Part shown: piece by piece, positions 9,486 through 50,707 of the stretch
Position numbering within the stretch: position 1 is the stretch's first letter
Layout of the letters: each line of letters starts with the position of its first letter
Source: Rhynchopus sp. YZ270_cl-10
Taxonomy: Eukaryota
Length of the DNA: 64,000 bases
Assembly (NCBI GenBank): GCA_964035575.1
Contig: OZ037841.1
Span: forward strand, 1,054,001-1,118,000
Direction of reading: 5' to 3'
Position numbers and translations under genes: made by a program
The notes under the pieces: model-generated
The model's database searches: none
Told to the model about the DNA's origin: nothing
The model's input: only the letters and a program-made list of their open reading frames with translations

Positions 9486-11342
<1,857 letters not shown>

Positions 11343-14300
11343 CGGAGCGAGAAGCGTGACCCCGAGTCGCTCGCAGCCCACAACTACGAGCAACTTCCTC
11401 GCGAGTGCATAGAAACACGCCCTGGTCCCCGCCACTTCCCAAACCAAGCCTCCTCATCATCATCATCATCATCCGTGGCATCCTTTTCTCCTCGCCCCTT
11501 TTTCCCTACGTCACTCTCAGACACATCTTCTTCCTCTGCTTCCTCCTCTTCTTCTTCTTCCTCTTCTTCCTCCTCCTCTTCAACGGATAGATCCTCCTCA
11601 CGTACGTGCTGCTCCGATGCTGAGAACACGCTCACGATAACCACCCTCAACTGCACATCCCTGCAGAACTACGCACACATCATACACGACCTGCAGTGCG
11701 ATATAATTTGTCTGCAAGAGACAAAATTGACCGAGTCCAAGATCTTTGAGATGAACGACTTCTTCACCACAGTTTGGTCCCCAGAGTGGGGCCCCCCCAT
11801 GGATGGCGCACTCGTCCATGGCATCCGCAGTCCACACATTGGGGAACGTGGGGGAGTTGCCACCATGCTGAAGAGACCGGGCATCATGTTCCTGGACACC
11901 GAATTGACGTCTTCTCTGAAGCCCTCGCTGAGGAAACGCGTGGTGCACACACGCGTGGCGCTTGGTTCCGGCCGTCTGTTCCTGCATGTGGTGAATGTGT
12001 ACGCCCCGTCAGGTGACACGCCAAGAGGTACAGTTGCTTCCCGCGAAGAACTCCTCCACACAGTGCTTGTGAAGTTTCGAGAAGCCCTGGGTAACGTTCC
12101 GTTGATTGTGTGCGGCGACCTCAACACCGATGTGGAAAGATCACCAACATTGCGGAAAGCACTCGCCAATGACTGGTGCGATGTCGCGCTCCTGGGAAGC
12201 ACTGGGGATGACGGCAAGCCCCCTGCCACGTTCACTCGCAAAGACTCAGCGGGAACCCGTATCGACTACATCCTGCTGAATAGCGTCGCTGCACACGCCA
12301 TTCATAGCTGTTGGACACAGAGCATCAACTGCATCCCCAGCCACAAGTCCGTCAACGTGCGGCTCTGCCTCTCTGTGTTTACAGAGTCGACACTCCGATA
12401 CATTATTCCCAAGCAGATGCCGGAGCTTGGACTTGTGGCGAATGCTGAGACAGTCGGCAGGAATCTCCTACAACAACACAACTGTGCCGCAGCACTTGCG
12501 TCCGGTGACATTGACGATGCGTGGGAAGCGATCGCATTGGCTGGGGAAGAGTTTCTCCTGCTCGCGGCAAAGGCAGCTGGTGACACGCTTTCGAAAGGGT
12601 TCTGTGGCCGCTCCAAGATCCCCCATCCGGTGTTGAAACCTGTGTGTGCACCTACACGACCGGCGTCTGTTGGTGGGTCTTCCCCCCGACAGGACCAACT
12701 TGCCAAATTCGAGTACAAGCTCACGGATCTCATCGCAAAGACTGAATCTTGTCCTGGTGGGGTGATGGAGAATCCTGTGCGCAATGCCTGGGGTAAAGTG
12801 TTCCGTACCGCAATTACGCTCAAGTTGATGAGGTCCGAGGAGACGACAATCCCTCTCTCGCTCGAAAGGCAAATACAGATCCTTAACTCTCTGCTGGAAA
12901 AATCCAAGATGCTTATGAACCTTGAGATACGCAATACCCGTCTACAGCGCGAGAAGCAGTACACCACCAAGCTGAAGGTGGATTTCAGCAGCGAACGACG
13001 AAAACTCACGGCGTGGTGCATGGGTAAACAGGGTGTTCCTATTTCCGCCCTTCGGGGGGAAGATGGTGTGCTTACGGCCAACCACAGGGAGATGGACAAA
13101 CTCCTGCGTGATGAATGGAAATCGGTGTTCAACCTATACGACCACGACCATCCCGAGCCAACTCTCGCCTCTTTCGAACAACGTTTCGGCAGCTTCGTCG
13201 CGCACTCCCCGATGTCCCTAGACCCGCTAAGTGGTGCTGACTTGCGTAGAACGCTTGACAAGAAAGGTAAGCGCACGGACGCCTGCGGAACTGATGGCTG
13301 GCGCTCATTGGAGCTTCATGCGATGCCCCTGTGCATACTGGACGGTTTTGCCCGAGTGTTCAACGCGATAGAGACGAACGGTGTGTGGCCGCAAGCGCTG
13401 TTGACCGCCCTGGTGACGCTCCTTCCCAAAGGCGAGGACCAGTCCCCCTTGAAGCTACGTCCTGTGACAGTGACCAGTGCGGTGTACCGGTTGTGGGCCT
13501 GCGCACGCCTGCAGGCAGTTCAACAATGGCAGGAACAATGGGTACACCCGTCGCAACATGGCTTCCGCCCAAAGCACAGCACGAACGACGTCTTGTATGA
13601 CGTCTTCACACAGATGGAGGACGCTCTGCTCGGTGGCGAACCGCTGCACGGTCTGGCACTCGACTTTGCGAAGTGCTTCGACCGCGTACCACAGGGCCTC
13701 ACCTTGGATCTTGTAGAGAAGATGGGGCTTCACCCCAGGATCATGACACCTCTGCGAGCAATGTACGCCAAGCTGAGACGGCGGTTCAAGCTGCCCTCCG
13801 GCGTAGGAGAGGCGTACTCCGTGACGAATGGGATTCTGCAGGGGTGCCCCCTCTCTGTGGTGCTCATCAACGCCTTGATGTCGGTCCTGACACACTGCAT
13901 CACGGCAGAGGTACCTGAGGCGTTTGTACGGTCGTTTGCTGACGACGCATACCTTTTGTCTCGCCATAGTGAAGCTTCGGTGGGGGCGTGTCTGCTGCGA
14001 GTGGAGGACTTCTGCCGCATCACAGGCATGCGCCTCAACATGGCGAAGACCTTTGCCTTCTCATCATTGAAGAACCACAAATGCAAGCTGAAGTCTGAGG
14101 ACAACCATAGGTTCCGGACAACAGAGTCACTCCGCTCACTCGGCGTGATGATGTACAGCTCCCTACGGAGCAAGGGGCGATACAACGCTACGGTATACCA
14201 ATCAGCCGTGAGGGCGCTCTCATGTTTGGGTGCGACACCGCTCTCCTTCTCCCAGAAGGTATCTATTGCCACATCTGCCATCCTCCCTTCAGTGTTATAC

Positions 14301-15773
14301 GAGTCCGCATTCAACATGCCCCCTCAGTCAGTGTTGAATGAACTAACGAAGGCAGTGGCGATGTGCTGCTGGGGCCCCACCTACCTTACCCGTTCAGTGG
14401 ATGCATTGCTCACACTCTGCCTGAAGGCGCACATGGCACACCCCCTCTCGAGTGCAATATGCCGGACGTTCAGAACTTACGCTGCCAGTGTGGAACGCAA
14501 CGACGCCATACGCCAGAGGTGCATGAACATCAGAGAGAGATACGAGACCCTGGCCGCACGGGGTACACCTATGCATGCAGTTGGTCCAGTGGGGACGGTG
14601 CTTGCCGCCTCCCGCAGATGTGGCGTGAGTTGGGACCCTGAGATGAAGACAGTGACGTCTACGTCTGCAACCGCGAAGACTACCCCCATCATCGAGATAG
14701 ACAAAGCCAAGAGGGCCCATGAAGTGCGAGTTCTGGCACGTACGGCGGTATGGGATGACCTACAGAGTAAACGCCCTACGTACGACGGCATCAACGACGG
14801 CATTGACACCCGCGCCACCAATGCCCTGTGGCGCAATCTACAATACCACGACCCCCTCAAGGCTTTCCGGATGCGACGTGTTCTGTGTGGTGGAGTCCTC
14901 TTCTGCCATCCAGATGGGCTCAAGCGCAGTGGCCTGCCCGAGGCGGACTTCAGCGATAAATGCCCCTTATGCCTCGTCCAGGTTACATGCCACACACGCC
15001 ACCTACTGTGGCACTGCAGCATAGTGCACACACCGGCATTCACTGCCCTACATGCGTCGGCCATCAGCCTCTACGGCAAGGGGCTTCCCACCTGCTTTGT
15101 GCTGCACGGCATTGTGCCCTCCAATGTGAGCAAGGTGACGGTGAAGGCGGTACAGTCTCTTCTCCTCGATGCCGTCACCACGATCGACACGACCCTCTCA
15201 AGTCCAGCGGATGTGGCCCCGGCTGTGCACCCTTGGAATCTCACATTTGCTGCCTCTAAACGGGATACCCCCTTCCGCACATATCTGACCAAGCTACAAC
15301 CTAGTTTTTCCTCCACCTATAGGGAGGCGTTCACTTTGAAAGCTTTCCTGTGGTGGGTGATTACGCTCGAGTGGAGCAAAGAACCCCGCGACGTGTCGTG
15401 TGTCGAGCTCGCGGTCGACTTCGAATTGCGCACAAGGGTCTTCCTCGCCAAACAGACCTCTAATATCCGCGAGCGTGGGCGGGCCATGCAAAGGCTCATC
15501 GTCAAGGCTAACATGCGGGCTTTAACAGCGAAACTCCGCCGCGCCCCATTCCCTGGTGTGAAGAGGGATCGTGTGCACTCCCTCCGTTCCGTCGGCGCCC
15601 CGGCGCTCATCGGATTCAGCAGACGCCCAGTGTTGTGTGCTAAAACACGTGCTTTTCTTGAATCACTAAATCATGTTGTCCCCCCTTCCCGGTCAGGGTG
15701 GGGTAATGATTGTATACCTGCTTACAGCTTCCCTGTAAACCAAACACAAGCGCAACACTCCGGGGTTCGATAA
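11343..15773 (+). CDS. Element A ORF2: 2A-like peptide + apurinic endonuclease + reverse transcriptase + CCHC finger + C-terminal domain
   Basis: APE motifs TLNC, CLQET, NVYAPS, GDLN, RIDY, SH. RT motifs LRPVTV, QHGFR, LDFAKCFD, GILQGCPLS, FADD. Finger CPLC-x8-HLLWHC. Open from the codon after the ORF1 TGA. Confidence 0.93.
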   Translation, partial: RSEKRDPESLAAHNYEQLPRECIETRPGPRHFPNQASSSSSSSSVASFSPRPFFPTSLSDTSSSSASSSSSSSSSSSSSSTDRSSSRTCCSDAENTLTITTLNCTSLQNYAHIIHDLQCDIICLQETKLTESKIFEMNDFFTTVWSPEWGPPMDGALVHGIRSPHIGERGGVATMLKRPGIMFLDTELTSSLKPSLRKRVVHTRVALGSGRLFLHVVNVYAPSGDTPRGTVASREELLHTVLVKFREALGNVPLIVCGDLNTDVERSPTLRKALANDWCDVALLGSTGDDGKPPATFTRKDSAGTRIDYILLNSVAAHAIHSCWTQSINCIPSHKSVNVRLCLSVFTESTLRYIIPKQMPELGLVANAETVGRNLLQQHNCAAALASGDIDDAWEAIALAGEEFLLLAAKAAGDTLSKGFCGRSKIPHPVLKPVCAPTRPASVGGSSPRQDQLAKFEYKLTDLIAKTESCPGGVMENPVRNAWGKVFRTAITLKLMRSEETTIPLSLERQIQILNSLLEKSKMLMNLEIRNTRLQREKQYTTKLKVDFSSERRKLTAWCMGKQGVPISALRGEDGVLTANHREMDKLLRDEWKSVFNLYDHDHPEPTLASFEQRFGSFVAHSPMSLDPLSGADLRRTLDKKGKRTDACGTDGWRSLELHAMPLCILDGFARVFNAIETNGVWPQALLTALVTLLPKGEDQSPLKLRPVTVTSAVYRLWACARLQAVQQWQEQWVHPSQHGFRPKHSTNDVLYDVFTQMEDALLGGEPLHGLALDFAKCFDRVPQGLTLDLVEKMGLHPRIMTPLRAMYAKLRRRFKLPSGVGEAYSVTNGILQGCPLSVVLINALMSVLTHCITAEVPEAFVRSFADDAYLLSRHSEASVGACLLRVEDFCRITGMRLNMAKTFAFSSLKNHKCKLKSEDNHRFRTTESLRSLGVMMYSSLRSKGRYNATVYQSAVRALSCLGATPLSFSQKVSIATSAILPSVLYESAFNMPPQSVLNELTKAVAMCCWGPTYLTRSVDALLTLCLKAHMAHPLSSAICRTFRTYAASVERNDAIRQRCMNIRERYETLAARGTPMHAVGPVGTVLAASRRCGVSWDPEMKTVTSTSATAKTTPIIEIDKAKRAHEVRVLARTAVWDDLQSKRPTYDGINDGIDTRATNALWRNLQYHDPLKAFRMRRVLCGGVLFCHPDGLKRSGLPEADFSDKCPLCLVQVTCHTRHLLWHCSIVHTPAFTALHASAISLYGKGLPTCFVLHGIVPSNVSKVTVKAVQSLLLDAVTTIDTTLSSPADVAPAVHPWNLTFAASKRDTPFRTYLTKLQPSFSSTYREAFTLKAFLWWVITLEWSKEPRDVSCVELAVDFELRTRVFLAKQTSNIRERGRAMQRLIVKANMRALTAKLRRAPFPGVKRDRVHSLRSVGAPALIGFSRRPVLCAKTRAFLESLNHVVPPSRSGWGNDCIPAYSFPVNQTQAQHSGVR

Positions 15774-16543: not shown

Positions 16544-18342
16544 ATGGTTCTCGCACGCGCATCTGGTCGGCAGGAATGTGCGTCATGCAGTACTAGCAGC
16601 TCCGACCTCCGTCCCTGTACAGGATGCTATGTTGTGTGGTACTGCAACGAAACCTGCCAAGCCGCACACTGGCGCAGCCACCAGGCAAAATGCCTCGCCC
16701 ACAGCAGCACACCGCCCCCACCCCCACCACAACCCAAAGCCAAACGCCCCCGCAAAAAAAGCTCGAAACGGAAAATCCCAGACTCCCCCGACCCGCCCGC
16801 TTCCTCCTCCTCCGTCATCGACAAAGGCCGGCAGGTCTTGGTACACCGCGCTACCACTTCTGCGGTGGTGGCTGGGGTGGTTGCGTTGTGTTCTTCCTCC
16901 ACCTCGTCACCTTCACCTCCTCCGTCACCTCGTTTCGAGGTGTCTGAACCGAGAACTCCACCTACACCACCGAAAACGCCAGAGCACGGAGACAGTCCAG
17001 GGGTGGCAACAACACAGTGGCGTGCTGTATGGTGTGCCGCGCATGCGAGATATCTGTATCTTAGTCCAGATGGATCGGTCGGATGGGTACTCCCATCAGG
17101 CGCCGAGGTTGAGGCTGCGTACGATGCTTCCTTGCTCCCTCCGGTGTCGTTGCTGCCCCCGATCCCACAGCTTTCGGTGGAGGCTGAGTCGCAGCCGGAT
17201 GAGCTGGGGGCAACGTTCAGCGGTCTCCTTGCCGAGGCGATCTCGTGCACCGTAGGGGTAGCGCATGAAGCCGCTGTGCCAATGGGTGAGAGAAAGGAGG
17301 TAGGGTCTACGGTGGTGATGTCTCCTGGTGGGTTTGCTCCGTTGGAGGGGATCGAAGATGGGAGCAGGACGCATTCAAGGGTGGGGAGTGATGAAGCAGC
17401 GAGGGTGTTTGTGGAGCATGGTGAGAGTGTGGATGAGGTGGACACGAATGCGCAGACGTGGGGGGATGAAGCAGGCACAATGGACTTCACCTTGATGTCG
17501 CGAGCGCCGGTGCAAGAGGTTGTGGCAGTGGCGGGAGGAAGTGCGCTGCCCACAACGTTGCCAGCAGTGCTCCTGGCGGCGGTGTCTGTGGAGAAGGAGG
17601 AAGTGGTGGCAGCAGTAGCCTGTGAGGTGGAGGTGGAGGTTAACGCGCATGAGAAGTTCAAGAGAGATGTGCAGGTATGGGGACAAAAAACAAAATAGTG
17701 GAGTTCCTCCTCGGGTGTCTGCACTAATACAAATATGCCAGATCCCTGACGATGACCTAAAAATAATGAAGTGGAATCTGGCGTTGTACTAAACCGCCTT
17801 ATTATAACACCCATTTGCTACCACAACCACCACACACACCAGGCACGTGCTGCGAAGTTCATCAGCCCCTGGGTGCGACGAGGTGATGCTGACAGTGACG
17901 TAGATGCGAGCCCTGACGCGCACGACCCACTGCGCTCAGGCGAGACGACCGTGTGTGTAGGGTCCCTGGCACGTGAGCCAGAGGCAGAGCCTGCTGCACA
18001 CAGTGCATTTGGTCTGTCGCGCCTCGTTGACGACGGCCGCAGGAAGAAGTTGGTAATCTTCGTCAGCACCCTTGCGGTATGCAGCCAAAGATGTTGTGTG
18101 TTTTGTTGTGCGATAACGGTTGTGATCAAGGTGACCACACGCTTAGGTTCATCTTATAAACTTTTCTTTTTCAGATGTAAACCTCGAAATGGATTGTAGG
18201 ACTGCATGGTTGGCACACCGGTCAATTGTACCTAGTACCCTGTTGTGTGTTTAAAAAAAATGAAACTATTCCCATCCCCACTTCTCTCCCTCAGGTTCTG
18301 GTTGCTGGTCTTGTTGTGGTGCTTGTATTTGTGCCGGTGTGA
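16544..18342 (+). CDS. MYND zinc-finger protein with WW-like segment and C-terminal transmembrane anchor (exons 16544-17674, 17843-18076, 18295-18342)
   Basis: CASC..CTGC..WYC..CQ..HW..H..C is a MYND finger. WRAVW..YLY..GWVLP is WW-like. The spliced C-terminus RRKKLVIFVSTLAVLVAGLVVVLVFVPV* is hydrophobic. Introns are GT-AG, phase 0. Confidence 0.8.
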
Positions 18343-19103
18343 CGACAATAACACGCAGCAGTACCATGATGTGCCTCTCAAGGTTGTGTGCGCGTTTCAA
18401 ACAGCATCAACGTACACTGCACTGTGCCTGCAACGTCTGTTTTCTGCCACAAGAGGGCTTTGTATCAAGTCAACTTCAAAGGACCATCGATGTTGCTGTG
18501 AACAAGCCAGCGTGCTCAACAGGCGTAAGCCCTGGTTGATAGTGCAAACCATGTCACGGCTTGTGGCCGTTACTGGTACCTTACTGTGTGCAGAAGGGAT
18601 ATCGTTGGTGCATCTTTCCCGTGTACCAACGAGATAGCGATAGTGGTAAAGATGTGTGTGCACGAGAGACACATTTCATCTTACAAGTTTTCTTTCCCCC
18701 TTACCTCGACGCCTCGCTAGCCTCTCTCTCACTCACTCTCTAACCCCAGTTCAAGCCGAATATTAACTAAAGTAAAACCGCCTTGTGTTGTATTTGTTTT
18801 CGAGCCTTCTTGTTCCTCACCCACAGCAACCCACAGCAACCCACCATGAAGAGATAGGCATACACAACAATGGAACTGGTTATCGAGGGCTTCTTTGACC
18901 ACTAAACACCTCACCCCTTTGTTAAGCAACACACACCGGCGTGGGTATCATCTTCACCACCCCCTTTTCATTTCTCTCCAGCCACGTTATTAGACTCACT
19001 TTGGCGCAGTGCTGTTTTGGGCACCCCTCGGTGTTCCCTGTGTTTGGAGGTGACTAAGCACGAGAGGCGTAGGCTCATCTGATTAACTTTTCTTTTATTT
19101 GCG

Positions 19104-23656: not shown

Positions 23657-25356
23657 GAAGAATAGGAGAAGAGAACGGAGAAAAGTGCGATGTTTGTGGG
23701 GCGGAAAATAAACGCGGTGTGGGGTTTGTGTGTCCTCACGTTGCCCGAAGAAGGGGATGGGGGGAAAGGTGGAGAGTAATGAGAACCGAGGGGTCCACAT
23801 CTTTTGTGGGTTGTTCGATATAAAAAAAGGGAAGGAGTGGGGTACTGACAACTTGGTTCCAGAACAGAGATGCCTGCAATTGGCGTTCTATGATGGGTAC
23901 AACCAGTTAAAGGTGAATAGGCTTGCGTGGCATCGTGGGTCAGTCGGAGGTGCCTGCATCAATAAGTACCATTTTTTTTTGTGAAATATACGTTTTTGTT
24001 CTTTCTTTCAGTGCCCTGCTGTCCGCTAGATGAACGGTGCTGCGTTTTGCACTGCCAGCTTCTCTTTCTGTTCTCTTTTCTCTTTTCCCTTGCACATTTA
24101 GTGCCTGCGTCCCAGAGGCGTTTGCACTCAACATATTATTTTTCCCTTTCCCCCGTCCTTGTCATACTCTTTCTTGTGAAGGGAACGAGTACACAATGAT
24201 TTGTAATTTTTTTTCAACTCCTTTTTTGCAATAAATCACGAAATGGATGTAGGGACAACGCACGGTTACGGGCCCATCCGTCACCCCCGATGTTCTGGTC
24301 ATGCACCAAAGGTTTGCAATGTCAGGAGAGGGCTTTTTATTTTATGCCATATTTGACTATTTCATCTTTCTCTCTTTTTATTAGGGAAAACGAAGCAAAA
24401 CAGAGGCTTTTGGGTTTGGATTTTCTGAACTTCTCTTTACAGTCAAAAAGGCCATAATTAAGGCGGGGGGGATTTTATTTTTTTTTGCCCCGCTCTCCGT
24501 TGCTTCTTCGTCCTTCATCGGAATTCCAATCAAATGTTTTTCCCCCCGCTGCAGTATTGCGTAAGGCAGCAGATAACAATTAATCTTCACAGGTAACCCA
24601 CGCAACGAGTCATTATTCGGGAGTGAATCTTTTGTGATGACTTTGTTCTCTTCTTTGAATGGAAAGTATATGAAAGTGATAGTAAAGTGTTGTGTGGCCC
24701 ACTACCCCTGTCCACCCCACTACACACACGGCGGTGAAGTAAAAAGGACTTGGCTTGTAGTTTCACTGTTGGCTTACAACGGTGAAACCATAAGTCAAGT
24801 CTTGTACTTCCTTCCTTCATTCTTCGTGCAATGCGTAATAAATCCCCCTCTCCCCATCCCTCACGCGATAACGATTCTTGCCAGACCTTTTCCCCCTCAA
24901 AATTTGTTGTTTTTTTCCCCTCCTCCTCTCTCTCTCCAGTGGTTTTACAGCAGTTTCTAAAGCCAAAACCCCACCGAAAATTCGTTTTTATTACACCCAC
25001 ACACAGTTTTTTTCCCTTTCAAGCTGCCACAAACGTGCCACGTGCAACAACAAAAAAAGGCGACAGTTCGTCCACACACCCAACTCCTTGTCCCCCCATC
25101 CCATCTCCGATTTCTTCAGGGGTTTCTTCTCTTCCGCCTCGACTACCTTGCTTAGCCGCATAAGAAACATTATTCTGTGATGCGAACACCATGCGTCACC
25201 TGGTGGTGTAACGTTACGTTACGCCGACAACACCACAGTCAAGCAATCCCTCCCCTCCTCTCATCCTCACCTCCACAAGGTCCCTTGCTCCCTACTTTCC
25301 TCCCATTTTCCCCTTTCTTTTTCCTCTATTTTTGAGTTTTTTTTTTTCTCTTCACA

Positions 25357-28727: not shown

Positions 28728-29267
28728 AGGGTGGAAGGGTGAAGGGTGAAGGGGAACGTCTGTTTTTTTATCAGACGTAAACCACGAAATAGATGTAGGA
28801 CCACATGGTTGGGGGTCTACCCGGTACAGCCGGTCATTGTACCGTAGGGTGCATCTGTTCGAGAGAGGGCTTTTGTATTTCAAGTCAACCTTTTTATTGG
28901 GTAGTAAGATCGGTCAGAAGGGTGTGAGAGGGCGGGAGAGGGGTGGGTCTATTTTATCCCCTTTTTTGTTTGTTCTCAGCAAAAAATCCCATTTGTTTTT
29001 ACTTCAGTGCCTGCGTCCCAGAGGCGTTTGCACTATCTATCTTCACTTTATTTGTAGTTACACGCAATTTTTCAATCTCGGTGCAACAAAAAAAGCAACT
29101 CTTTTCGTCATATAATTACCGTAAATTTACACGAAAAAGAAAAGGAAAATACAAATAAAAATAAAGAGAAGGAAAAATCCCCCTCCATTTACATCGACAT
29201 ACCTGAGTATAGTTACACTAACAAAAACAGCTCCCCTCCTTTTTTATTTTACATTTTTCCTCCCCCA

Positions 29268-34245: not shown

Positions 34246-34657
34246 AAAAACACAAAATTGACACTAATAAATAACAAGACATTAACCCAGAGAGAACCAA
34301 CCATTTTTATTTCAACAGCTCAACCAAACTTGAAGCCCCCCTCCCCGCTTAGTATCTGCTTCATACTATGGGTCAAAGCGACAACACAACAGCGACGGAG
34401 ACGGCTTTTTTAGGGTTCATGTCATAAACCTTTTTATTCTTTTTGTTTTCCATGTTCTAGGTCCCTCTCTGATATTTCCCTCATCTCGCATCGTTCGGTG
34501 CGTTCTTTCCATCCCCCCTTTTGGCAGTTCCTGCTTCCGCAAGTCTTGCACACTCCCAGACCCCACAGACCCCTCTTGCCCCCTCTTTTGGTTGTGAGAG
34601 ATGCATGTAACCCAGGCTCCATCTCTCACAGTGTTTCTTCAAGGTGACTCTGAGTGA

Positions 34658-34832
34658 GGCTCAAGGCTCAAGGCTCAAGGCTCAAGGCTCAAGGCTCAAG
34701 GCTCAAGGCTCAAGGCTCAAGGCTCAAGGCTCAAGGCTCAAGGCTCAAGGCTCAAGGCTCAAGGCTCAAGGCTCAAGGCTCAAGGCTCAAGGCTCAAGGC
34801 TCAAGGCTCAAGGCTCAAGGCTCAAGGCTCAA
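34658..34832 (+). repeat. (GGCTCAA)25 tandem array within a family-B hairpin variant
   Basis: 25 perfect 7-mers, flanked by GGTGACTCTGAG (34643) and GGCTTAGTCTCACC (34833-34846). Confidence 0.9.
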
Positions 34833-35243
34833 GGCTTAGTCTCACCAAAATTTTTCTTTCAGATGCGCTAAGCTACCAACTCTTTTTGATGTGTTTGTCA
34901 TCAGTTAATGGACAATTCCTGTGTGCGACAGTTGCTGAGGTGGGGTCAACCACCCCCTTTTCCCCCAAGTGCTACACCAACACCTCGGGATTCGAAAAAA
35001 CCTACGGAGCGTGAGCGGCCCATTACTTTTTTCTGTACTTCATTGGTCTCGCTACGTAACCCCCCTCTGACAATCACTCCCCCCGTCCCCTACCCCCGCC
35101 CCCCACCCCCCACCCTGGCACCTTGGTTTCCCCTCCCCCCCCGCCCCTGCCGCCTTGGTGTTTGTCAACCCCCCCCCTACGTGGTGCGGCTTGTGAAGGG
35201 TCACTAGGAGTTCTTCCCCCCCGACACATATCGGCATCACAAA

Positions 35244-37160
35244 ATGTCTTCAAGCTTCGAGGAGCTGCTGAAGAAGGCCAAGGTCCTTAAGACTAAGGCA
35301 AAGTCCCCTCTCGTGCGCCAGCGGCTCATCGCGATCTTGGAGTTACTCCTCGATCTCGCCTTTGACGACGAGGACGCTGGCCCCGCCCCCGCTAAACGGG
35401 CAAGGCTGGACACGGCGCCACCCCCTACAACGAACAGCAACAGCAACAGCAACAACAACAACAACAACAACACCCCTACAACGAACGACGAAGACGAGCA
35501 AATGGATACCTCACCACCCAAAGAGGCTAAGAAGAAGCCCGCACCGAAGGCACCGAAGAAGAAGAACGCCTGGGTCCACGTGAAGGACACCCGGACCAAC
35601 TCCTCGGCAGCAAAGAGAACGGCAGGTGCCCCGACGCAGCCCCCAGCGACGCAGGCGCTGCAACTGCGGCAGGAGGACTGGGGCATCCCCGTGAAGGTGC
35701 CCGCTGATTTTGACGGCGACGCACCACCAGCAAACGGGGTAATCCTTCTGCCCAAAGACGCAACAGAGGCAGAGCGGATTGAGTGGGTGACCCGCTTGAA
35801 GGGCTTGGCAAAGCTGAACGGCGGAGCTTACGCGGTACTCTCCTTCAGGCCTCTGTCCGCGTCACCGAAGGAGGAGCACAAGGATCCTATGCTCTTTAGC
35901 AAAGGAGACCTGACCGTGTGCCGCGACGTGTACCTCTGGTACGTGGGAGTGCAGTCGACGCCGAAGCTGCAGTATGCGCAAGCGGAGGTGACGGACTCCA
36001 CCACCGTGATCCACGCGGTTGTCGAGAAGAAGACCCTCAGCGCCTCGACGGTCAAACTTCTGGCCGACAAGAAGACCCGCGACTCCGCCATGGCGGCGTT
36101 GGTGAAGCGTGCGACGAAGCAGCTGGATGTGGTTACTGCGCATAACCGCATATTCAACCTCTTCGACTACAAGGACCAGGCCCTGGTATCAGTGCGCGTG
36201 CCAGCGGAGAGGAAGATGGACCTGCTGCGCAGTAGTGGGAAGTACGGTGTGTTCTGGCGCACTACATCGTATGTGAAGGGAGGGTATGCAGAGCCTGTCT
36301 TCTGGTTCAAGTCCGAGGCGACGGTGAAGGATGCGCTGCGTGTGCACGAAGCGGTGAAGAGCGATGGTGTCGTTTGGTCCGGCAATCGGTACGGTTTGAG
36401 GATGAGCAGCATCGACGACCTGCCTAAGTTCCGCACAGCAGGTGGCAACTTGGCGTGCGAACCTCGTGACGAAGCGGTACAGCTGTACGAAGTGCGTGGT
36501 GCCTCTTCCACAGAGGAGGCGGATGATGTGATGCGCTCGCTGAGGACGCAGTGGGAGTGCGCCTCCCGCAAGACGTACCGATCGGGGAGGTTCTTAGTGA
36601 TCATTGTCGAGAGCACGACTGCCCCCCAATGGTCGGTCTTCCGCCGCGGTAGCAAGTCGTCACTCCATGTCACACCATGCACCAAGGAGGCTCTGCGCAA
36701 CAAGAAGAGCAAAGCCATGAAGTTCATCGGGACAGTGCGAAAGCAGAAGGTGACCCTCTCGATGGAGGACTTCCCGCCACTGAGCCCCGACCCCACCAAT
36801 ACGATCAGGGGCGTGAAGCGTTCTGCGTCCGGCCAGCCTGCGCCTACACCGACACCGGCAACAGCAGACGCTCCGACCTCCATCTTCCAAAGGCTGGGAA
36901 CCGCAATGTTCTCTCTCTCACGGTCCCGGGACAGGGAGGATATGAAAGAGGACGTGGATCTGCCTGACGCCGACTCGTCGGGGGGTGAGGAGGAGGATGC
37001 GCATGTGCACGACTGGACACAGGCGGGCACAGTGTTAGTGAAGGCAACGGACGCCACTTGTGCATGCTGTACTAGCTCGATACCGGTGTCCCACGGTGCG
37101 AAGAAGTGCCCAGGATGCGACGCACTCATCTGTGCCACGTGCTTCGGCAACAGCCAGTGA
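35244..37160 (+). CDS. Element B ORF1, with C-terminal Cys-rich zinc finger
   Basis: Homologous to element A ORF1. Ends HDW..CACC..CPGC..ICATC, then a TGA in frame with ORF2. Confidence 0.8.
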   Translation: MSSSFEELLKKAKVLKTKAKSPLVRQRLIAILELLLDLAFDDEDAGPAPAKRARLDTAPPPTTNSNSNSNNNNNNNTPTTNDEDEQMDTSPPKEAKKKPAPKAPKKKNAWVHVKDTRTNSSAAKRTAGAPTQPPATQALQLRQEDWGIPVKVPADFDGDAPPANGVILLPKDATEAERIEWVTRLKGLAKLNGGAYAVLSFRPLSASPKEEHKDPMLFSKGDLTVCRDVYLWYVGVQSTPKLQYAQAEVTDSTTVIHAVVEKKTLSASTVKLLADKKTRDSAMAALVKRATKQLDVVTAHNRIFNLFDYKDQALVSVRVPAERKMDLLRSSGKYGVFWRTTSYVKGGYAEPVFWFKSEATVKDALRVHEAVKSDGVVWSGNRYGLRMSSIDDLPKFRTAGGNLACEPRDEAVQLYEVRGASSTEEADDVMRSLRTQWECASRKTYRSGRFLVIIVESTTAPQWSVFRRGSKSSLHVTPCTKEALRNKKSKAMKFIGTVRKQKVTLSMEDFPPLSPDPTNTIRGVKRSASGQPAPTPTPATADAPTSIFQRLGTAMFSLSRSRDREDMKEDVDLPDADSSGGEEEDAHVHDWTQAGTVLVKATDATCACCTSSIPVSHGAKKCPGCDALICATCFGNSQ

Positions 37161-40100
37161 CTTGAGCCGCAACACGTTAAACACGTGTCAACTACGAATC
37201 AGCAGCGACTTGTCACATCCGGTAGCGTTCACCCACACCCCGGACCCAAGAAAGCCAAGCCATCTGGCAAGACCGGTACGCACAACAACCGCGCAGCCGG
37301 CCCACCAGCAGCGAAGAAACAGCGCACCGCTGCCGCCAGCACAGGACCACCTTTGTCTGCCGTACCACCTGCAAGCGAAGGCTGCATAACAGTCACCACC
37401 TGCAACGTAACATCATACGCGAACCACGCTGCCTGCACGCTTGCGTTGAACAGCACAGTGCTTTGCCTGCAGGAAGTGAAGCTGACGGAAGAAGGTGCCC
37501 GCAGGATGGAAGCCGACCTCCCGCCTGTCTGGAAGCCATTATGGGGCAGACCGCAGCCTGGATACATGCTTGCAGGTATCCGCCACCCCACCATTGCGGA
37601 GAGGGGCGGTGTAGCCACACTAGTGCGCAGACCCTCGAGCGCATTCCATGACAACACGTTGACCGACATCAACTTGTTCCACGACAGGATACAGCTCACG
37701 CGTCTGGCCCTGGGGGCGGGAGGCGTGTTCCTGTATATCTTCAACGTGTACGCTCACTCAGGCTCTAAAGGAGGGAGGAAGAAGGATCGCGAGAAACTTC
37801 TGCACTGCGTCCTCAACACCATGCCTAATGCACTAGGGAAGGACGTGCCGGTGGTTGTGTGCGGTGACCTGAACACCTCTGTCTCTGCGTCGTACATTCT
37901 GCGGGAAGCGGTGAAGTCTGGGTGGACTGACGCTGCTGTGGTGCAGGCCCAAAGGCTCGGTTGTGTCCCTCCTCCAACCTTCATGCGACGCGACTCTGAA
38001 GGTACGCGGATTGACCACGTACTGCTGAATGAGGTGGCGGCCGCTGCTTTGTCCAGGTGTACGACGCACCACGTGGGAGTACCGCTGCACAGCGCTGTCA
38101 CTGTGGAGCTCTCTCTTGCCGCCTTCACACAACTAGTCTACCGATTTGTTGTGCCGAAGGATCTGTCGATGGTGAAGCCTGACCTGAGTGTGCAGAGATC
38201 AGCACAATGCGCCGCTCTCCTGGCTGCGAAGGGCTTCCACGAAGCTGAAGCACGTCTGGACGTACATGACATGTGGAATGCGGTGTCGCAGGCTAGTGAG
38301 GAGTACCTACTTCTGTGTGCGAGAGACGATGGCATCCCCACGAATCGTGGCCACCGTGGCCGTGGTGAGGTGAGGCAGCCGGTGCAGAAAACGATCGCAG
38401 CCCCGACGACGAAATACTCGACAGGTGCAGCACCCCCTCGACAGGTGGAGCTGGCCCGCCTGGCGAATATGTCTCTGGAGCTCCAGATTCAACTAAAGAG
38501 ACTGGCGAATGGGGGGTTCACCGTGCTGGAGCACAAGACCTACTGCCTGTGGGCATCGACACTCCGGAAATGCAAGGAACTGCGTGTGCGTGACCTGTCT
38601 GTGGACGAACTTCCCCTGGGCATAGCAGAGCAGCTGACGCTAGCAGCGGACCTCCACACTACCTCTGCGACACTGGCGAGTGACCTGGGCAGGGACAATC
38701 GAGTCTACAGGGAAAAGCAACTGAAGCTGAAGGCGGTGCACAACTTCGACGTGGACCGGAAGAAGCTCACGGCCTTCTGCAGGGGTACCCTGCCGGACGA
38801 TCTGCTGGCTGTGGCTAGAAGAGACGGGACCCTGACGGCCAACGCACAAGAGATGGATGCCATCCTCCAGGAAGAGTGGAAATCTGTATTCCAGCTCTAC
38901 CGCGAGTGCCCTGAACCGGAGTATGACGACTTTGATGCTGTGTTTGGGAAACATGTAGCGAAGCACAACATGGATTTGCTCCCTCTCACTGGGGAGGACC
39001 TGGACCGCGTTCTGCAGAGTAAGAAGAAGTCAGGCGCATGTGGTGTCGATGGGTGGCGCATGGGTGAGCTGAAGCGCCTTCCTGTGGTCCTGCTGAATGC
39101 GTTTGCCACAACGTTCAACGAGATCGAAGAATCCGGCACGTGGCCTGAAGCGTTGCTCACTGCGCTTGTGACGCTCACTCCAAAGGGAGAGGGAAAGGGC
39201 CCACTGGACCACCGCCCGATCACCGTGACGAGCAGTGTCTACAGACTCTGGGCGTCAGCACGAGTACGTAGTATCCAGAAGTGGCAAGAAACCTGGATTC
39301 ACAAGGACCAACACGGCTTCCGCCCTCGCCACGGGGCTCACAACGTCCTGTTCGACATCTGCACGCAGCTGGAAGACGCACTGTCTGGCGGAGAACCGCT
39401 GTACGGCCTTGCACTTGACTTTGCTAAGTGCTTTGACCGTGTCCCCCAGAAGCTTACCCTCGAGCTCGCAGCACGACTAGGGCTACACCCCCGCATTCTG
39501 CAGCCGCTCCGCACCATGTACGAGCAACTTCAACGTAGGTTCCAGCTTCCACTTGGCGTGGGTACCCCGTTCAGAGTGACGAACGGCATCCTCCAAGGAT
39601 GCCCCATCAGCGTCGTCTTGATTAATGCGCTCGTCGCAGTGCTGCTGAAGGACCTGGACAGCTGCAAGAACACCTGCTCACGTGCGTACGCGGACGACAT
39701 CACCCTCCTGTCACGGAAGTCGATGAACAGCTTAGAGCCATGCCTGCGCATTGTGGAGAGGTTTTGTGCCATCACCGGAATGAAACTTAACGACACCAAA
39801 ACCGTTGCATTTGGATCACGTGAGAGCTTCACCAGCACTCTTGTCTCGAACACAGGTCACAGGTACAAAACACTGGTGAAGGTCAAGATCCTAGGGGTCT
39901 ACCTCTACTGCTCGAAGCACTCTCGACGCTCCTCTCCGGAACGAGTCCGCAAGGCCATTGCAGCCCTGCAACGCCTACGATGTATGCCGCTGGCTTTCTA
40001 CCACAAGTATAGAATTGTGTCAGAATGCATCCTCCCGGGTGCGCTGTATGAGGTCCCGTACGCTCTGCCCTCGCAGTCTAGCTTGAAGGAACTCTCCACC

Positions 40101-41549
40101 GCCGTCAACACCTGCCTCTGGGGCAGTGACTATGGGACACGCGCAGGCCTCGCAATACGCACCGTTTTATTGAAGAGCCACCGCACTGACCCGGCTGCCA
40201 TCATCTGCAACCGGTCCATGAACGTCGTGCTTGACCACATAGCATTTGACGCAACACTGAGAGAACGATGCCTGTCGATACACAAGAGGTACAACGCAGG
40301 AGGAGGCTGGGACTTCCGCCCCCACGGGCCGGTCGGCAACATGACCTCCACTAGCATACTGACAGGCGTGAGATGGTGTGACGACCTAACAACCGTTACG
40401 GAGCTCTCGAGTGCCCCCGTGGAAGAAGAGAAGACACACGCCCTAGGTCTTCTCGCGCCAGGTGAACGACACCACGCCATTCGCGAAATCGTCCGACGAC
40501 AGAAGTTCACAGATCTTGCCTTGGACAGACCGACTTACGACGGCGCTCAATACGGTGTCAACCTCGCCGACACCACGTACCTGCACGACCAACTGCAGTG
40601 GTCCCACCCCCTGCTAGCTTACCGCCTCCGACGTATCATCTGCGATGGGATACTCTACGCGCACCCTACGGTGCTGTGCCTATACGAGTCAACAAAGAGA
40701 GGTGGCATACACCTCGAAGTGAATCAGTGCCCCTTATGCCTCACACCAACCTCCGGGCTGGCGAAGCACCTGCTGTGGACTTGCCCGCACACTGTGTCTG
40801 CTAACGTGAAGGAAGCGCACCGCCCTCTCCTCGACAGGATCGGCCCGAACACCCCGAGTTGCCTGGCTATGCATGGCATAGCTCCCACGAACACGCCCAA
40901 GCACGTAGTAACCGACATGCAGAGATACCTGCTGGACGTCACCACCGCAGTAGATGATCACCTGTCCTCGCGGACGACCACAGCGCCTGCACGCCACCCA
41001 TGGCGTATGGACTTTGAAGTGTTCGATGCGCCCCCATACCAGGAGGCCATCTACCGGCAGCTCGCCCCTTTCTTTGGGAAGGACGATGATCCGAGATGCA
41101 AGCAGAAGCGCCGCGAACTGAAGCAAATGCTCCTATGGGCCTCCTCCCTGAAATGGAGCACCGCCAACCTGCCTGTGACATGCGTGGAACTTGCCATTGA
41201 CCTGGAAATTTTCCACAGGATCTACGTTCTCCGGCCAACCTCTAACATTAGAGAACGGGCCGCCGCCTTGCGCACATTGCTCAACAAGCTTCACCGCCTG
41301 TGCAAAGCCCTTGGGATTCAAAACCCATTTCCCGCATCTGCCATCTCCTCCTCACGGGGCCTCCGGTCCATTGGCGCACCCGGACTTATTGGCTACGACC
41401 GTCGCCCAGTTTTTACGTACCCGCGCTACACTATGCACATGCTCGAACACGTCATCGTACGTGCCAAAATTACGAACTCCGGCTGGGGAAATGACATCAT
41501 CCCTGACAACAAACTTGTAGAAGCCAGCGCAGCTGAAGCTGTGCGATAA
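37161..41549 (+). CDS. Element B ORF2: 2A-like peptide + APE + reverse transcriptase + CCHC finger + C-terminal domain
   Basis: APE motifs TCNVTS, CLQEV, NVYAHS, GDLN, RIDH. RT motifs HRPITV, QHGFR, LDFAKCFD, GILQGCPIS, YADD. Finger CPLC-x8-HLLWTC. Confidence 0.93.
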   Translation, partial: LEPQHVKHVSTTNQQRLVTSGSVHPHPGPKKAKPSGKTGTHNNRAAGPPAAKKQRTAAASTGPPLSAVPPASEGCITVTTCNVTSYANHAACTLALNSTVLCLQEVKLTEEGARRMEADLPPVWKPLWGRPQPGYMLAGIRHPTIAERGGVATLVRRPSSAFHDNTLTDINLFHDRIQLTRLALGAGGVFLYIFNVYAHSGSKGGRKKDREKLLHCVLNTMPNALGKDVPVVVCGDLNTSVSASYILREAVKSGWTDAAVVQAQRLGCVPPPTFMRRDSEGTRIDHVLLNEVAAAALSRCTTHHVGVPLHSAVTVELSLAAFTQLVYRFVVPKDLSMVKPDLSVQRSAQCAALLAAKGFHEAEARLDVHDMWNAVSQASEEYLLLCARDDGIPTNRGHRGRGEVRQPVQKTIAAPTTKYSTGAAPPRQVELARLANMSLELQIQLKRLANGGFTVLEHKTYCLWASTLRKCKELRVRDLSVDELPLGIAEQLTLAADLHTTSATLASDLGRDNRVYREKQLKLKAVHNFDVDRKKLTAFCRGTLPDDLLAVARRDGTLTANAQEMDAILQEEWKSVFQLYRECPEPEYDDFDAVFGKHVAKHNMDLLPLTGEDLDRVLQSKKKSGACGVDGWRMGELKRLPVVLLNAFATTFNEIEESGTWPEALLTALVTLTPKGEGKGPLDHRPITVTSSVYRLWASARVRSIQKWQETWIHKDQHGFRPRHGAHNVLFDICTQLEDALSGGEPLYGLALDFAKCFDRVPQKLTLELAARLGLHPRILQPLRTMYEQLQRRFQLPLGVGTPFRVTNGILQGCPISVVLINALVAVLLKDLDSCKNTCSRAYADDITLLSRKSMNSLEPCLRIVERFCAITGMKLNDTKTVAFGSRESFTSTLVSNTGHRYKTLVKVKILGVYLYCSKHSRRSSPERVRKAIAALQRLRCMPLAFYHKYRIVSECILPGALYEVPYALPSQSSLKELSTAVNTCLWGSDYGTRAGLAIRTVLLKSHRTDPAAIICNRSMNVVLDHIAFDATLRERCLSIHKRYNAGGGWDFRPHGPVGNMTSTSILTGVRWCDDLTTVTELSSAPVEEEKTHALGLLAPGERHHAIREIVRRQKFTDLALDRPTYDGAQYGVNLADTTYLHDQLQWSHPLLAYRLRRIICDGILYAHPTVLCLYESTKRGGIHLEVNQCPLCLTPTSGLAKHLLWTCPHTVSANVKEAHRPLLDRIGPNTPSCLAMHGIAPTNTPKHVVTDMQRYLLDVTTAVDDHLSSRTTTAPARHPWRMDFEVFDAPPYQEAIYRQLAPFFGKDDDPRCKQKRRELKQMLLWASSLKWSTANLPVTCVELAIDLEIFHRIYVLRPTSNIRERAAALRTLLNKLHRLCKALGIQNPFPASAISSSRGLRSIGAPGLIGYDRRPVFTYPRYTMHMLEHVIVRAKITNSGWGNDIIPDNKLVEASAAEAVR

Positions 41550-41561
41550 CGAATATGATAA

Positions 41562-41600
41562 GGTGACTGAGCACGAGAGGCTTAGGATCATCTTATAAAC
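41562..41600 (+). repeat. Family-B 3' terminal hairpin (other copies ~3340, 8848, 16436, 16494, 18130, 19049, 20148, 44441, 54116, 58640, 61048)
   Basis: Consensus GGTGA-CTAAGC-ACGAGAG-GCTTAG-GT-TCATC-TTATAAAC(T)n; it begins 12 nt after the ORF2 stop. Confidence 0.85.
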
Positions 41601-42917
41601 TTTTCTTTTTTTTTCTCCTCTCAAGATATGTGTGCACGACAGCAGTGCCATCTTATCACGTCCGTCTTTTTTGTTTTCGCTAATAATATAGAACCCAACT
41701 CTCTCTACGTATTGTTTCTTTTTTTTTATATGCGCAATGTTTCGTGGAAGAAAAGCTGAATAAAAACGACAAAAAGCCCTCGGACGACTCTTTGCTAACA
41801 ACCAACTACAGTTCATGCACCTTTGTGTGTCCGTATACTGTTTCTTTTTCTCTCTTTTCCCTCTCTCTCTTTCCCCCCCCTCAGTCAACCCCCAAGAGCA
41901 ACACTCCGGGGGTTTTGATAACCCGCGGAATGTCAATGCCTGCGTCCCAGAGGCGTTTTGCATTATCACCTTCCCCCCCTTTTTTTTTTCTCTTTTTCTT
42001 CCTGACACCACCCCATTTCCCTTCCAGCTGTTGTGTTATGGTGAACACCTACACCTACCAAATGCGAGAGGACCGAACCCTCCACTTTTCCCTCAAGTTG
42101 AGGGCCGCGGTCCACAGAGGAGCAGAATAGCAAAGGGAGGGTGAATAGGTGCCAGGGCCCAGCCAAAGCATTAAGGGCGAGTCATATGTGGCAACACTGT
42201 GCTTTATCAGGTTCCTGCGTATGAAAGCTTCGCCATGAAGGTCAGTGTCTATAAGCAGCTCCCTTTGTGTGACACTGCGTAGGGTTGGATAATCCCACGG
42301 AATGTCAGTGGTCTGTCCCCCAGAAGGTCAGAAAGTTGCATATTTTTTCGACCTTCTGGTGTGGGTCCACGAAAAGAACCCTTGGGGAATTGGGTTGAGT
42401 CGCACCTTCATATTTTTTTCCCCTTTCTCTGACATACTCGGGCACACTCATATTATTTGTTCGAGTGTTTTACATTTGTTCTCTTCTTTCCCCCATCTTT
42501 TTTGTTTTGTTTTTGCGAATTATGCCTGCGTGTGGATGACGAGAAAACCTGAAAAGCGTTATTCTAGGGTGCTAGGTTGGTGGGTAGCTCGGGGTGTAGT
42601 AAAAAAAAATCACAAAAAAAATCAAATCATGAGGGGGTAAAACCCACAGGATGAAGTCTTTTTTTGTGATAGCCTCATAGTGAGTTTGTTGTTGTTGTTG
42701 TTGTTGTGGGGTTCATCATTTGTACCCCATCTCCTCACCCAAGATGCGATAACTATTAGCGTAACGTGCTGAAACAATAAAAAGTATAGTGAAGCATATC
42801 CTCGGGTATCTACACTAATACTACCAAGTTTTCTAAATAAAGAAAACAAAAAATAAAAAATACTGCGACTAGGGAAATTGGGGTTTTGCACAAAGCGAGG
42901 CAAACCCTTCCCATATA

Positions 42918-43355: not shown

Positions 43356-44871
43356 TATTTTCTTACACTTTCTTTCTGATGTGTATGTGCGGGCATATCT
43401 CATCTCTCTTTGTTTTTCATTTTTATGTCAACGGCAAAAAAAAGGCTACAGAAACTCCGATTCCCTCCCGTTTATTCCCTCTTTTCCCAATGTCATTTCC
43501 TCGCCGTACTTCCAAAAATGGAAAATATAAAGTTAAACCCAAGAAAATGCCAGGTCCTTTTTTTTAAAAGATGTGCAAGATGTCCAATTCCCTCAATTTT
43601 AAAACTGCGAGAAGATTTTTAGTTTTTGTGCAAGATACTCGGGGGGGCTGCACAGTGTTGCGGTCTCTGTGTGATTGTATTGTCACAGTGAGAACCATTT
43701 TCCAAATTTTAAAAAACAAGCAAAAAAAAAAAAAAAAAACCACCTTTTTCTGAAGGTGCCGTTCCACAAAATAGTGTGTATCTTTTGTTAGCATGACAAA
43801 CCCCCCATTTTTCCAACAAAGTTTTCCCCCTCACTTTCTTTGCGTGATTTAACAACACAGGAGTCACGACGGCGGTTTCCGTGAGGTTGTCGTCCAAAAT
43901 CAAACACAATTTTGGGCAAGATTTGGTGTTCCCAGCCAGCAATGCTGCACGATGTGTGTGCTCAACGAGGCACATTCATCATTAAGTTTTTTTCTTCTTC
44001 TTTTATTTGCACTTTCAACTTCTCTTTTTTGATTGAAAAAAAAATATGTGTTCTCGCGCCAAACCACTCAGTGTGTTTTGCATTATTTTTTGCAATTTCC
44101 TTCATACAATGTAGAACGGCCTGTCATGACTGGAAATTTTTTGGGCACGACGGGAGTGGGTCGAGCATTTTTATATATTTCCAACCGTTATGCTTGTATG
44201 TATGTTTCATTTTATTTTGTGTTGCGTGCATTTTTTTTTAAAGATATGCGAAAGCCAGACAAGGTGGCCATTCATGGTCAATGGAGCGACGAAAGAAACT
44301 AATAACCAAAAAAGGCAAAAAAAAAAGCAAAGCGACGCTCATCCCCTCCCCTGTTCTGAAAAAAGGTTGTGTTTGAAAAATCAATGGGTAATTCCAACCT
44401 GCGTGGAAGGTTTCCCAGGATGGGTTCCCCCCTTGTTGAAGATGACTAACCACGAGAGGCTTAGGTTCATCTTATAAAACTTTTCTTTATTTTGCTCGCA
44501 CAAGGCAAAACCGAACCGTCTCCGAACAAAAACAAAATAATCTGGTTTAAGAACGAAGAAAAACAAAAAGATAAGAAATAACACACAAAAAATTGAATAC
44601 GAAACACAACACCATGCACCTCTCCATTTTCTTTCACCCTCCCTCCTCTCCCTCCTCCCCCCTCCTCCCTCCTCCCCTCCCCCCCTCCACCACATCCCCA
44701 ATAGATGACACACATCCTACACAAAAAACGCCTTGAGAGAGCACACCCCTCTCTCTCCTCTCCCGAGGGTTTCCGTTCCACCACAACACGGCCTACCTTA
44801 CGTTGCACCATACTGTGAGGTTCTGCCCTCTACCCTGAGAGGTTGAGGGGGTTGTTCCCGCTACAACAACA

Positions 44872-49742: not shown

Positions 49743-50707
49743 GAGAGGACGCAAGTCCCTGTCATTTGATCACTGAGTTTCTTGCACAAAGTGAGATCCT
49801 TTTTATTATTTTTATTCTCTTTTTATTTGTTGCACCTTTTGGTGATGTAATTGGAAATCGGAAGAAATGAGCACTGCCTGGTTTTGTGATATCAATCTCT
49901 GATTCGGTTGCGCTTAATGACCCCTTTTCTGTTTTATTTTGAAACTATATTCACCAAGTTCGCCAGAGCAAACGTGGCGATTGCGAGGCGCAACAACGTT
50001 TTCGAAGCATTTTTTTTTTTCAACAGCAACGTTCTCAGCAACATCCCCCCCACCCCCTAAACAACACTGCGATACGCCTTTCAGCGAAGATGTGGTGGTC
50101 CCTCCCCCTTTTCTTTTTTTTTCCAGTGCCTCCGTCCCAGAGGCGTTTGCACTGTCAACTTCACTTCTTTTCTCTTTTTTCTTTTTGCGTCCGTATGATG
50201 ATGTTCGTGCGACCGTATTTTTTTGTTTTTGTTTTTTGTTTGCGTTCCGTATGAATCCTGATGTCACGGACCTGCCATATTCTTTTGCCCTCTTCAAAAC
50301 TATGTTTTAAAAAGGGGGAAAAATACAGCACCAGCAGCTTTTTCACGATACATGTATCCTTTTGTCTTTTGTTTTCACATGGTTTACCAAAGAGCTTACC
50401 CTACAAGGTAAGTAAACACGAAAACCTTAAAATTAAAGAACTTAAGTGTACCATGCATGTCTTATTCTTACAATAACCGCTGGCCCCAAGGCTACTGAAA
50501 AAAGTTATCACACCTCTCCCCAATGCTCCCTGATTGTCCGCTCCCCATTTTTAGTTCAACTTCACTACGCCGATTACTGAAATAGCCACTTTTCCCTTTC
50601 ACGCTTACAACTCCAGGGAAACAACACACAACACCTTCCCCCGCCCCCTTTTTTTTTGTACACAAATCATTTAGACACATCAGCCGTCTTTTGTCAAAGT
50701 AGTCATC

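Follow-up and report, generated by a model that had tools for sequence, protein, structure and literature searches.

In a 64,000-nucleotide stretch of the genome of Rhynchopus sp. YZ270_cl-10 (assembly GCA_964035575.1, contig OZ037841.1, positions 1,054,001 to 1,118,000; hereafter the window, numbered from its first nucleotide), we identified two retrotransposons without long terminal repeats (non-LTR retrotransposons), elements A and B, whose two open reading frames (ORFs) share a frame and abut at a UGA stop codon. In both elements the stop is followed by a 29-codon leader that lacks an AUG and ends in the Pro-Gly-Pro (PGP) of a 2A-like motif, after which ORF2 continues with an APE endonuclease and a reverse transcriptase (RT). 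The junction is real, conserved and specific to one subclade, and from it we infer a mechanism in which readthrough of the UGA would probably give access to ORF2 and ribosomal skipping at the PGP (StopGo) may follow. All parts of the two elements described below are on the plus strand.

Element B is an APE-RT non-LTR retrotransposon of full length, with two ORFs. Its ORF1 (35244..37157, ATG at 35244) encodes 638 amino acids, with a low-complexity N-terminus, a core resembling tandem RNA recognition motifs (RRMs) and a C-terminal Cys-rich putative zinc finger. A Pfam search of ORF1 gave no match; an AlphaFold model of the core, made from 5 sequences (pLDDT 69), had tandem RRMs as its best Foldseek match (E 8e-4), and an RNA-binding fold is predicted with moderate confidence. 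ORF1 is closed by an in-frame TGA (37158-37160), preceded by G as in element A and followed at +4 by the C (37158..37161) of a CTT codon. The leader (37161..37247) runs for 29 codons without an ATG to a 2A-like end, GSVHPHPGP, whose final Pro is codon 29 (37245-37247), the putative skip site lying between the last Gly and this Pro (37245). Beyond it are a variable, low-complexity spacer (37248..37385) that tolerates indels (6 nt left out and 3 put in among reads), the APE domain (37386..38057; PF03372, E 2e-13 over 37455-38057, first strand from 37386), the RT domain (39204..39833; PF00078, E 2e-24) and the TAA stop of ORF2 with a short 3' end (41547..41617), truncated copies of which lie elsewhere in the window. 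After the TGA the frame of ORF1 stays open for 1462 codons, to 41549, and the first Met is codon 116, inside APE and beyond the LQE motif at codon 105. An earlier reading made from the sequence alone (the sequence-only reading) had described TGA-CTT followed by 29 codons ending in PGP, with no ATG ahead of the APE QE motif, and we confirmed both statements.

The same distance had been reported for element A and was also found here. ORF1 of element A (9486..11339) is homologous to that of B without the Cys-rich end, and its junction (11340..11429) consists of TGA-CGG, beginning at 11340, and a 29-codon leader ending in CIETRPGP. ORF2 past the PGP (11430..15773) comprises a spacer, APE and RT, and the first Met past the stop is codon 137, with the LQE motif at codon 126. 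The two junctions stand apart within the window. Only two of the 23 PGP motifs in its six frames precede a long open frame, those of A and B, both at 29, and these junctions are also the only two places on the plus strand where in-frame ORFs of 200 or more codons each abut.

Kinship of elements A and B

The ORF1s of the two elements align with E 3e-16 and the ORF2s are ~41% identical. In a quick RT tree search (46 rows, without named reference elements), A, B, a subfamily of B termed B' and the protein P0002 formed one subclade (SH-aLRT 94). ORF1 homology, ORF2 identity and the common subclade together point to a single conserved layout, not two origins; A and B are sister lineages that likely inherited the 29-codon spacing and kept it. 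The case for a conserved spacing amounts to two comparisons, one of them deep and the other shallow. The claim of the sequence-only reading that element B has the layout independently of A therefore does not stand, while its statement that the linkers are otherwise unalignable does, as the A and B leaders have only the PGP in common (3/29 residues). Within the subclade the leader is constant in length; the spacer from the PGP to the APE Asn varies from 49 to 74 residues, and the distance from the ORF1 Trp to the end of ORF1 from 83 to 201 residues.

An 18-nt exact direct repeat is present at both ends of element A (9190-9207 and 15754-15771), its 3' copy overlapping the end of ORF2, and presumably resembles a tRNA B-box. 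The 5' regions of A and B share a 21-nt motif (20/21 identical; 9385-9405 and 35027-35047), possibly a promoter or trans-splicing signal.

Fixation of the stop codon and the B' subfamily

In the ORF1 clusters of two subfamilies, 7/7 and 4/4 listed proteins end at the stop, at the same residue. These 11 proteins, one of which is the window's own, all seem to come from one organism, and the 11/11 ends show fixation of the stop in the family, not independent origins. On the ORF2 side, no protein exceeds 1450 amino acids among 15 listed of the 44 cluster members for element B, or 1379 among 15 of the 37 for element A. The sequence-only reading had favoured selection over a chance nonsense mutation. 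This holds in that the stop, found at all 11 ORF1 ends and common to two subfamilies, is not due to chance, and that leader length is kept while the neighbouring spacers vary; the part of the argument that drew on two independent origins is lost.

Further evidence on copies of the B family comes from protein clusters and read contigs (run X1). A 41-nt stretch that includes the stop (37125..37165) has no differences between B and B' in a shared contig, and both flanks diverge from it. Its depth of 1600 roughly equals that of the two flanking variants combined (647 and 902). Around this stretch the DNA identity of B and B' is 59% in the leader and about 80% or less in ORF1, and the stretch marks either a tract of recombination or an RNA signal located ahead of the stop. 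In the B' contigs, the upstream loose end matches the ORF1 protein P0145 and the leader end matches the ORF2 proteins P0081, P0082 and P0092; these pieces appear, from their overlaps, to belong to one subfamily. B' and B are 65% identical in ORF1 and about 97% in ORF2, which suggests a swap of a 5' module, ORF1 plus leader, with a crossover near the PGP. The leader of B' has the same length as that of B, with indels just 3' of the PGP.

Coding character of the leader

Over leader codons 1-23, B and B' differ at 28 of 69 bases (hand count), 8 at first, 4 at second and 16 at third positions. The bias towards third positions (16/23, versus 12/46 for first and second; Fisher p=0.0007) is also seen in codons 1-8, where 5/8 third versus 2/16 first and second positions differ (p=0.02). 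Between element A and P0002 the leader is 62% identical (18/29), similar to APE (61%) and RT (63%), and the next spacer 24% (16/66). Together, the third-position bias and the conservation of the A/P0002 leader at the level of APE and RT indicate that the whole leader, including the codons that adjoin the stop, is likely translated. A Met in the leader is not conserved, being found at codon 13 in B', at codon 9 in one truncated copy and nowhere in A or B. Codon 1 (CTT in B, CGG in A) is not near-cognate to ATG, and no ATG lies beside either stop or within 120 nt after it.

The 2A-like motif

Many relatives carry a 2A-like motif before APE, usually GD[IV][HE]xNPGP, and a pattern search found a PGP motif in 9 of 136 further representatives, one of the 9 being spurious. 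As in class A 2A peptides, the terminal PGP of A and B is in frame ahead of the downstream protein. Consistent with the sequence-only reading, neither motif is canonical: the class A core, (G/H)D(V/I)ExNPGP, is departed from at three positions in B, at two in B' and at two or more in A. Close relatives are nearer to canonical, with GDIHPHPGP in B' and NIETNPGP in P0002, and for this reason the A and B motifs appear to have drifted from the one usual in the clade rather than to form a new class; the proposal of a new StopGo variant thus finds no support. An upstream leucine cluster is present as LL in B' and is weak in B and A. The HPHPGP ending of B matches class B rows, and the class B Trp at about -16 is absent from the A and B leaders. 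We considered whether the UGA might supply this tryptophan and rejected the idea, as the register is wrong (UGA at -29, not -16).

Several published studies bear on activity. Class B peptides allow H before the PGP at lower activity and need the Trp at -16 (Rao et al. 2025, PMC12338488), and scans of P2A and F2A found no change tolerated at D12 or N16, E14H tolerated and some non-canonical cores active (10.64898/2026.09.24.754024). 2A-like peptides at the same ORF2 site are active in some elements; among the non-LTR motifs that Odon et al. tested, the non-canonical ones showed no activity (PMC3708506). Most retrotransposon 2A-like peptides lower the protein level rather than skip (PMC13405545). 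Judged by their motifs, skipping is doubtful for B itself and more plausible for B' and P0002; for the clade we rate skipping at the PGP as slightly favoured, and lower for B's own motif.

Spacing in more distant relatives

Most named matches among 80 homologues were Diplonema papillatum retrotransposon proteins, which makes a diplonemid the probable host. Metagenome and genome scans gave 12 and 5 distant loci, respectively, of which 7/17 have DNA upstream of APE, and a spacing of 29 was found in 0/7. The nearest in-frame stop lies 40 (TGA-T, no Met), 46, 76 (TGA-C), 204 and 333 from the PGP in five of them, PGK being taken in one locus; one of the other two has ORF1 in another frame and in the second no stop occurs before the contig runs out. 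Among proteins that ranked nearer in the search, the PGP is preceded by open frames of 38, 54, 100 and 103 residues. The sequence-only reading had suggested tabulating the stop-to-PGP distance across relatives, and the outcome is divided: 29 is kept in the A/B/B' subclade and the spacing varies farther out. P0002 and P0096, available as proteins only, have a Met exactly at the place of A's TGA and then 29 residues to the PGP. The ORF1-APE fusions that we found are automatic D. papillatum gene models, apparently spliced across the junction with the leader skipped. No relative was found in scans of viral contigs, and a search for shorter proteins combining the element A leader with APE found none.

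Several relatives have features of their own. One distant relative (L002:97-226) combines an in-frame TGA, no Met before APE and a canonical GDVEQNPGP at distance 40. Two D. papillatum ORF1 families (P0140, P0144) both end in Trp, and most of the listed related ORF2 models start deep inside APE, which hints at a similar AUG-less junction. An OTU-like deubiquitinase stretch precedes APE in P0018, P0010, P0015, P0044 and P0197 (PF02338 in P0018 and P0044), and P0012 and P0021 contain two tandem 2A-like motifs.

Proposed route to ORF2 and its alternatives

We favour UGA readthrough, which is probably the route to ORF2, because the ORFs share a frame, both junctions have UGA-C and that of A has UGA-CGG, the codons after the stop appear to be translated and there is no start codon. 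Stops in the context UGA-C are leaky, and UGA-CGG is the motif of type II readthrough in viruses (PMC3542737). TGA-C ends only 2 of the other 23 long plus-strand ORFs in the window, a point weakened by the shared ancestry of A and B. Most ribosomes would stop at the UGA and give abundant ORF1p, a predicted RNA chaperone; in a few percent, an amino acid would be incorporated at the UGA and translation would run on through the leader. At PG/P these ribosomes would either skip, yielding ORF1p with a 30-residue tail and a free, Pro-started ORF2p, or produce the full fusion. Readthrough followed by partial StopGo, both together, is our best reading, if somewhat short of an even chance. The fixed leader length plausibly reflects a nascent peptide that fills the exit tunnel; inheritance with few indels explains the length too. 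In its most specific form the proposal has two recoding events in series, in which a leaky UGA would set a low rate and a non-canonical StopGo, one exit-tunnel length later, would release from ORF1p a reverse transcriptase that starts at Pro and has no AUG, motifs such as HPHPGP and ETRPGP being adapted to the ribosomes of diplonemids; we put this form forward tentatively, as possible rather than probable.

A number of observations weigh against readthrough, skipping or both. The type II motif, UGA-CUA/CGG, is present in A (CGG) and absent from B (CUU). We detected no 3' stimulatory RNA structure (z-scores -0.39 to +0.52 in six windows), and a small hairpin of B at +12..+28 has lost 2/6 pairs in B' with no compensation (hand check). 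No long-range pairing rose above shuffles; the best values, reached in two of the four tests, ranked at 1 of 20 shuffles and lay in unrelated positions. Most of the nucleotide conservation between B and B' is found 5' of the stop, a better fit for a reinitiation signal or recent recombination than for a readthrough signal, and recent homogenisation of the 41-nt stretch could let the third-position signal predate the stop in one lineage, although the same stop and spacing in element A argue against this. The Met of P0002 at the stop position also counts against readthrough, and no clean single-ORF ORF1-APE fusion was seen among the relatives found. With regard to skipping, B's motif lacks the D and N found essential in the P2A and F2A scans and is not preceded by a Trp at -16. 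The table of Rao et al. contains HPHPGP 19 times; the 15 rows examined are class B, and the one tested was inactive (PMC12338488). Finally, such junctions can mislead, as the sequence flanking the UGA of the Candida albicans retrotransposon Tca2 alone gave no readthrough in yeast (PMC2194720).

Readthrough might occur without skipping, giving mainly an ORF1-ORF2 fusion; the PGP of this lineage would then be weak or vestigial, or would act as a pause signal. All evidence for a translated leader fits this alternative, as do the departures of the A and B motifs at positions needed in assays, the absence of RPGP (0 occurrences) from the Rao et al. table (PMC12338488), the inactive motifs of Odon et al. 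and the reduction of protein level by most retrotransposon 2A-like peptides. However, the PGP is the sole feature common to the A and B leaders and stands at the same distance in both, B' and P0002 have nearer-canonical cores and several non-canonical cores are active, so we consider it unlikely. Rather unlikely as well, though the main rival, is termination followed by reinitiation that needs no AUG, at the stop or immediately past it, in which the 29 codons would be ORF2's own N-terminal 2A leader, long enough for the exit tunnel. Consistent with this, P0002 and P0096 place a Met in register with A's TGA, the identical 41-nt stretch lies mostly upstream of the stop, and there is precedent in the reported AUG-independent translation of L1 ORF2 (PMC11485995; also PMC5972666, PMC10275272) and the stop-start coupling of SART1. 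Yet codons 1-8 evolve as protein, neither A nor B has an ATG or one of the usual near-cognate starts there, the 120 nt upstream of either stop contain no UGGGA core of a termination upstream ribosome-binding site (TURBS), and the P0002 Met, taken from a protein record, could be a gene-caller start. Reinitiation would moreover need neither TGA-C nor the same frame.

ORF2 might instead be made from a separate or processed RNA, by trans-splicing at an internal site, by a cis intron whose excision takes out the stop, or by editing of the RNA. Diplonemids do trans-splice, some with non-canonical introns (PMC12621601), and the D. papillatum gene models join ORF1 to APE; these are automatic predictions, however, and a leader that is spliced out would show no protein-like evolution. 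There is no pyrimidine-rich AG acceptor near the B junction, the first ATG of an RNA trans-spliced at the junction would be codon 116, inside APE, and a spliced RNA of such a long interspersed nuclear element (LINE) would presumably be copied back without the stop, all of which makes processing very unlikely. The least credible option is that the UGA is a sense codon, by a reassigned code or selenocysteine, or that the copies are dead. The stop is UGA in both elements, as a sense codon would have it, but the 15 long stop-to-stop ORFs contain 167 TGG and no internal TGA, TGA closes 9 of the 15, and gene calls end ORF1 at the stop. No Rfam match reached the gathering score in 9000-42200. UGA reassignment and a selenocysteine insertion sequence (SECIS) were rejected on these codon counts, which fit the standard code, and on the Rfam search. 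Dead copies are at odds with two intact ORF2s of 1460+ codons in multicopy families.

Other features of the window

A B-type 3'-end remnant is apparent just upstream of element B, with a tandem array of a 7-nt unit (34657-34836). Short 3'-end copies of A and B are scattered through the window (41893-41973, 29004-29049, 50124-50166 and 24100-24128; 44439-44497, 19048-19100, 18107-18171 and 8846-8892) and are probably 5'-truncated insertions. Three consecutive ORFs at 2-8729 appear to be parts of a single gene, interrupted by short introns, that we take to resemble a dynein heavy chain gene.

Comparison with known systems

How LINE ORF2 is translated from a bicistronic RNA is unsettled, and the subclade offers a compact, testable case of an AUG-less ORF2 that lies behind a fixed in-frame UGA and has a leader under selection as protein. 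Readthrough combined with StopGo, if true, would be a third route beside reinitiation and single-ORF 2A, would contradict the published idea that 2A replaces ORF1 as a down-regulator, would extend 2A sequence space, and would mean that gene callers cut these ORF2s short or splice them wrongly. Related elements exist in D. papillatum, which makes the question testable in a cultured diplonemid. Already known are 2A-like motifs before APE, mostly in elements without ORF1, and readthrough of in-frame stops in viruses, also proposed for LTR elements. In a literature search whose scope excluded most subscription papers and Repbase reports, we found no LINE with ORF1, an in-frame stop, an AUG-less leader and a 2A-like motif. 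Two ORF1-2A-ORF2 cases are mentioned in PMC13405545, and in the accessible passages of PMC5009743 StopGo is mentioned only next to frameshifting.

The D. papillatum APE-RT gene models (P0030, P0021, P0009), compared as proteins, have homologous ORF1 and ORF2, with up to ~49% identity over RT and 2A-like motifs in some; the passages and supplements of the genome paper that were searched (PMC10161547) do not describe such a junction layout. A likeness in the motif itself is seen with the 2A-like ORF2 N-termini of L1Tc, Ingi, CR1, L2 and Crack (Odon et al. 2013, PMC3708506; Luke et al. 2013, PMC3894237), in which a PGP also lies shortly before APE and motifs range from canonical to degenerate. 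In those elements the motif is ~40-80 amino acids from the ORF2 start, mostly without ORF1, whereas here it follows a full ORF1 and an in-frame stop, with no conserved ORF2 ATG. Type II UGA readthrough in alphaviruses, tobraviruses, furoviruses and coltiviruses (PMC3542737) likewise has an in-frame UGA ahead of a polymerase, with UGA-CGG matched in A and UGA-C in B. The junctions described here differ from that signal in that the 3' stem-loop (~8 nt past the stop in type II) was not detected, B has CUU, and any fusion would be split again at the 2A-like motif, 29 codons further on. Tca2 similarly has a UGA between structural and enzymatic ORFs that share a frame, but it is an LTR element and no 2A-like motif appears in the abstract (PMC2194720). 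Human L1 and SART1 share with elements A and B a bicistronic LINE RNA and low ORF2 output; L1 has a 63-nt spacer and an AUG and SART1 an overlapping stop-start, UAAUG, whereas in A and B the frame runs directly on past the stop with no AUG.

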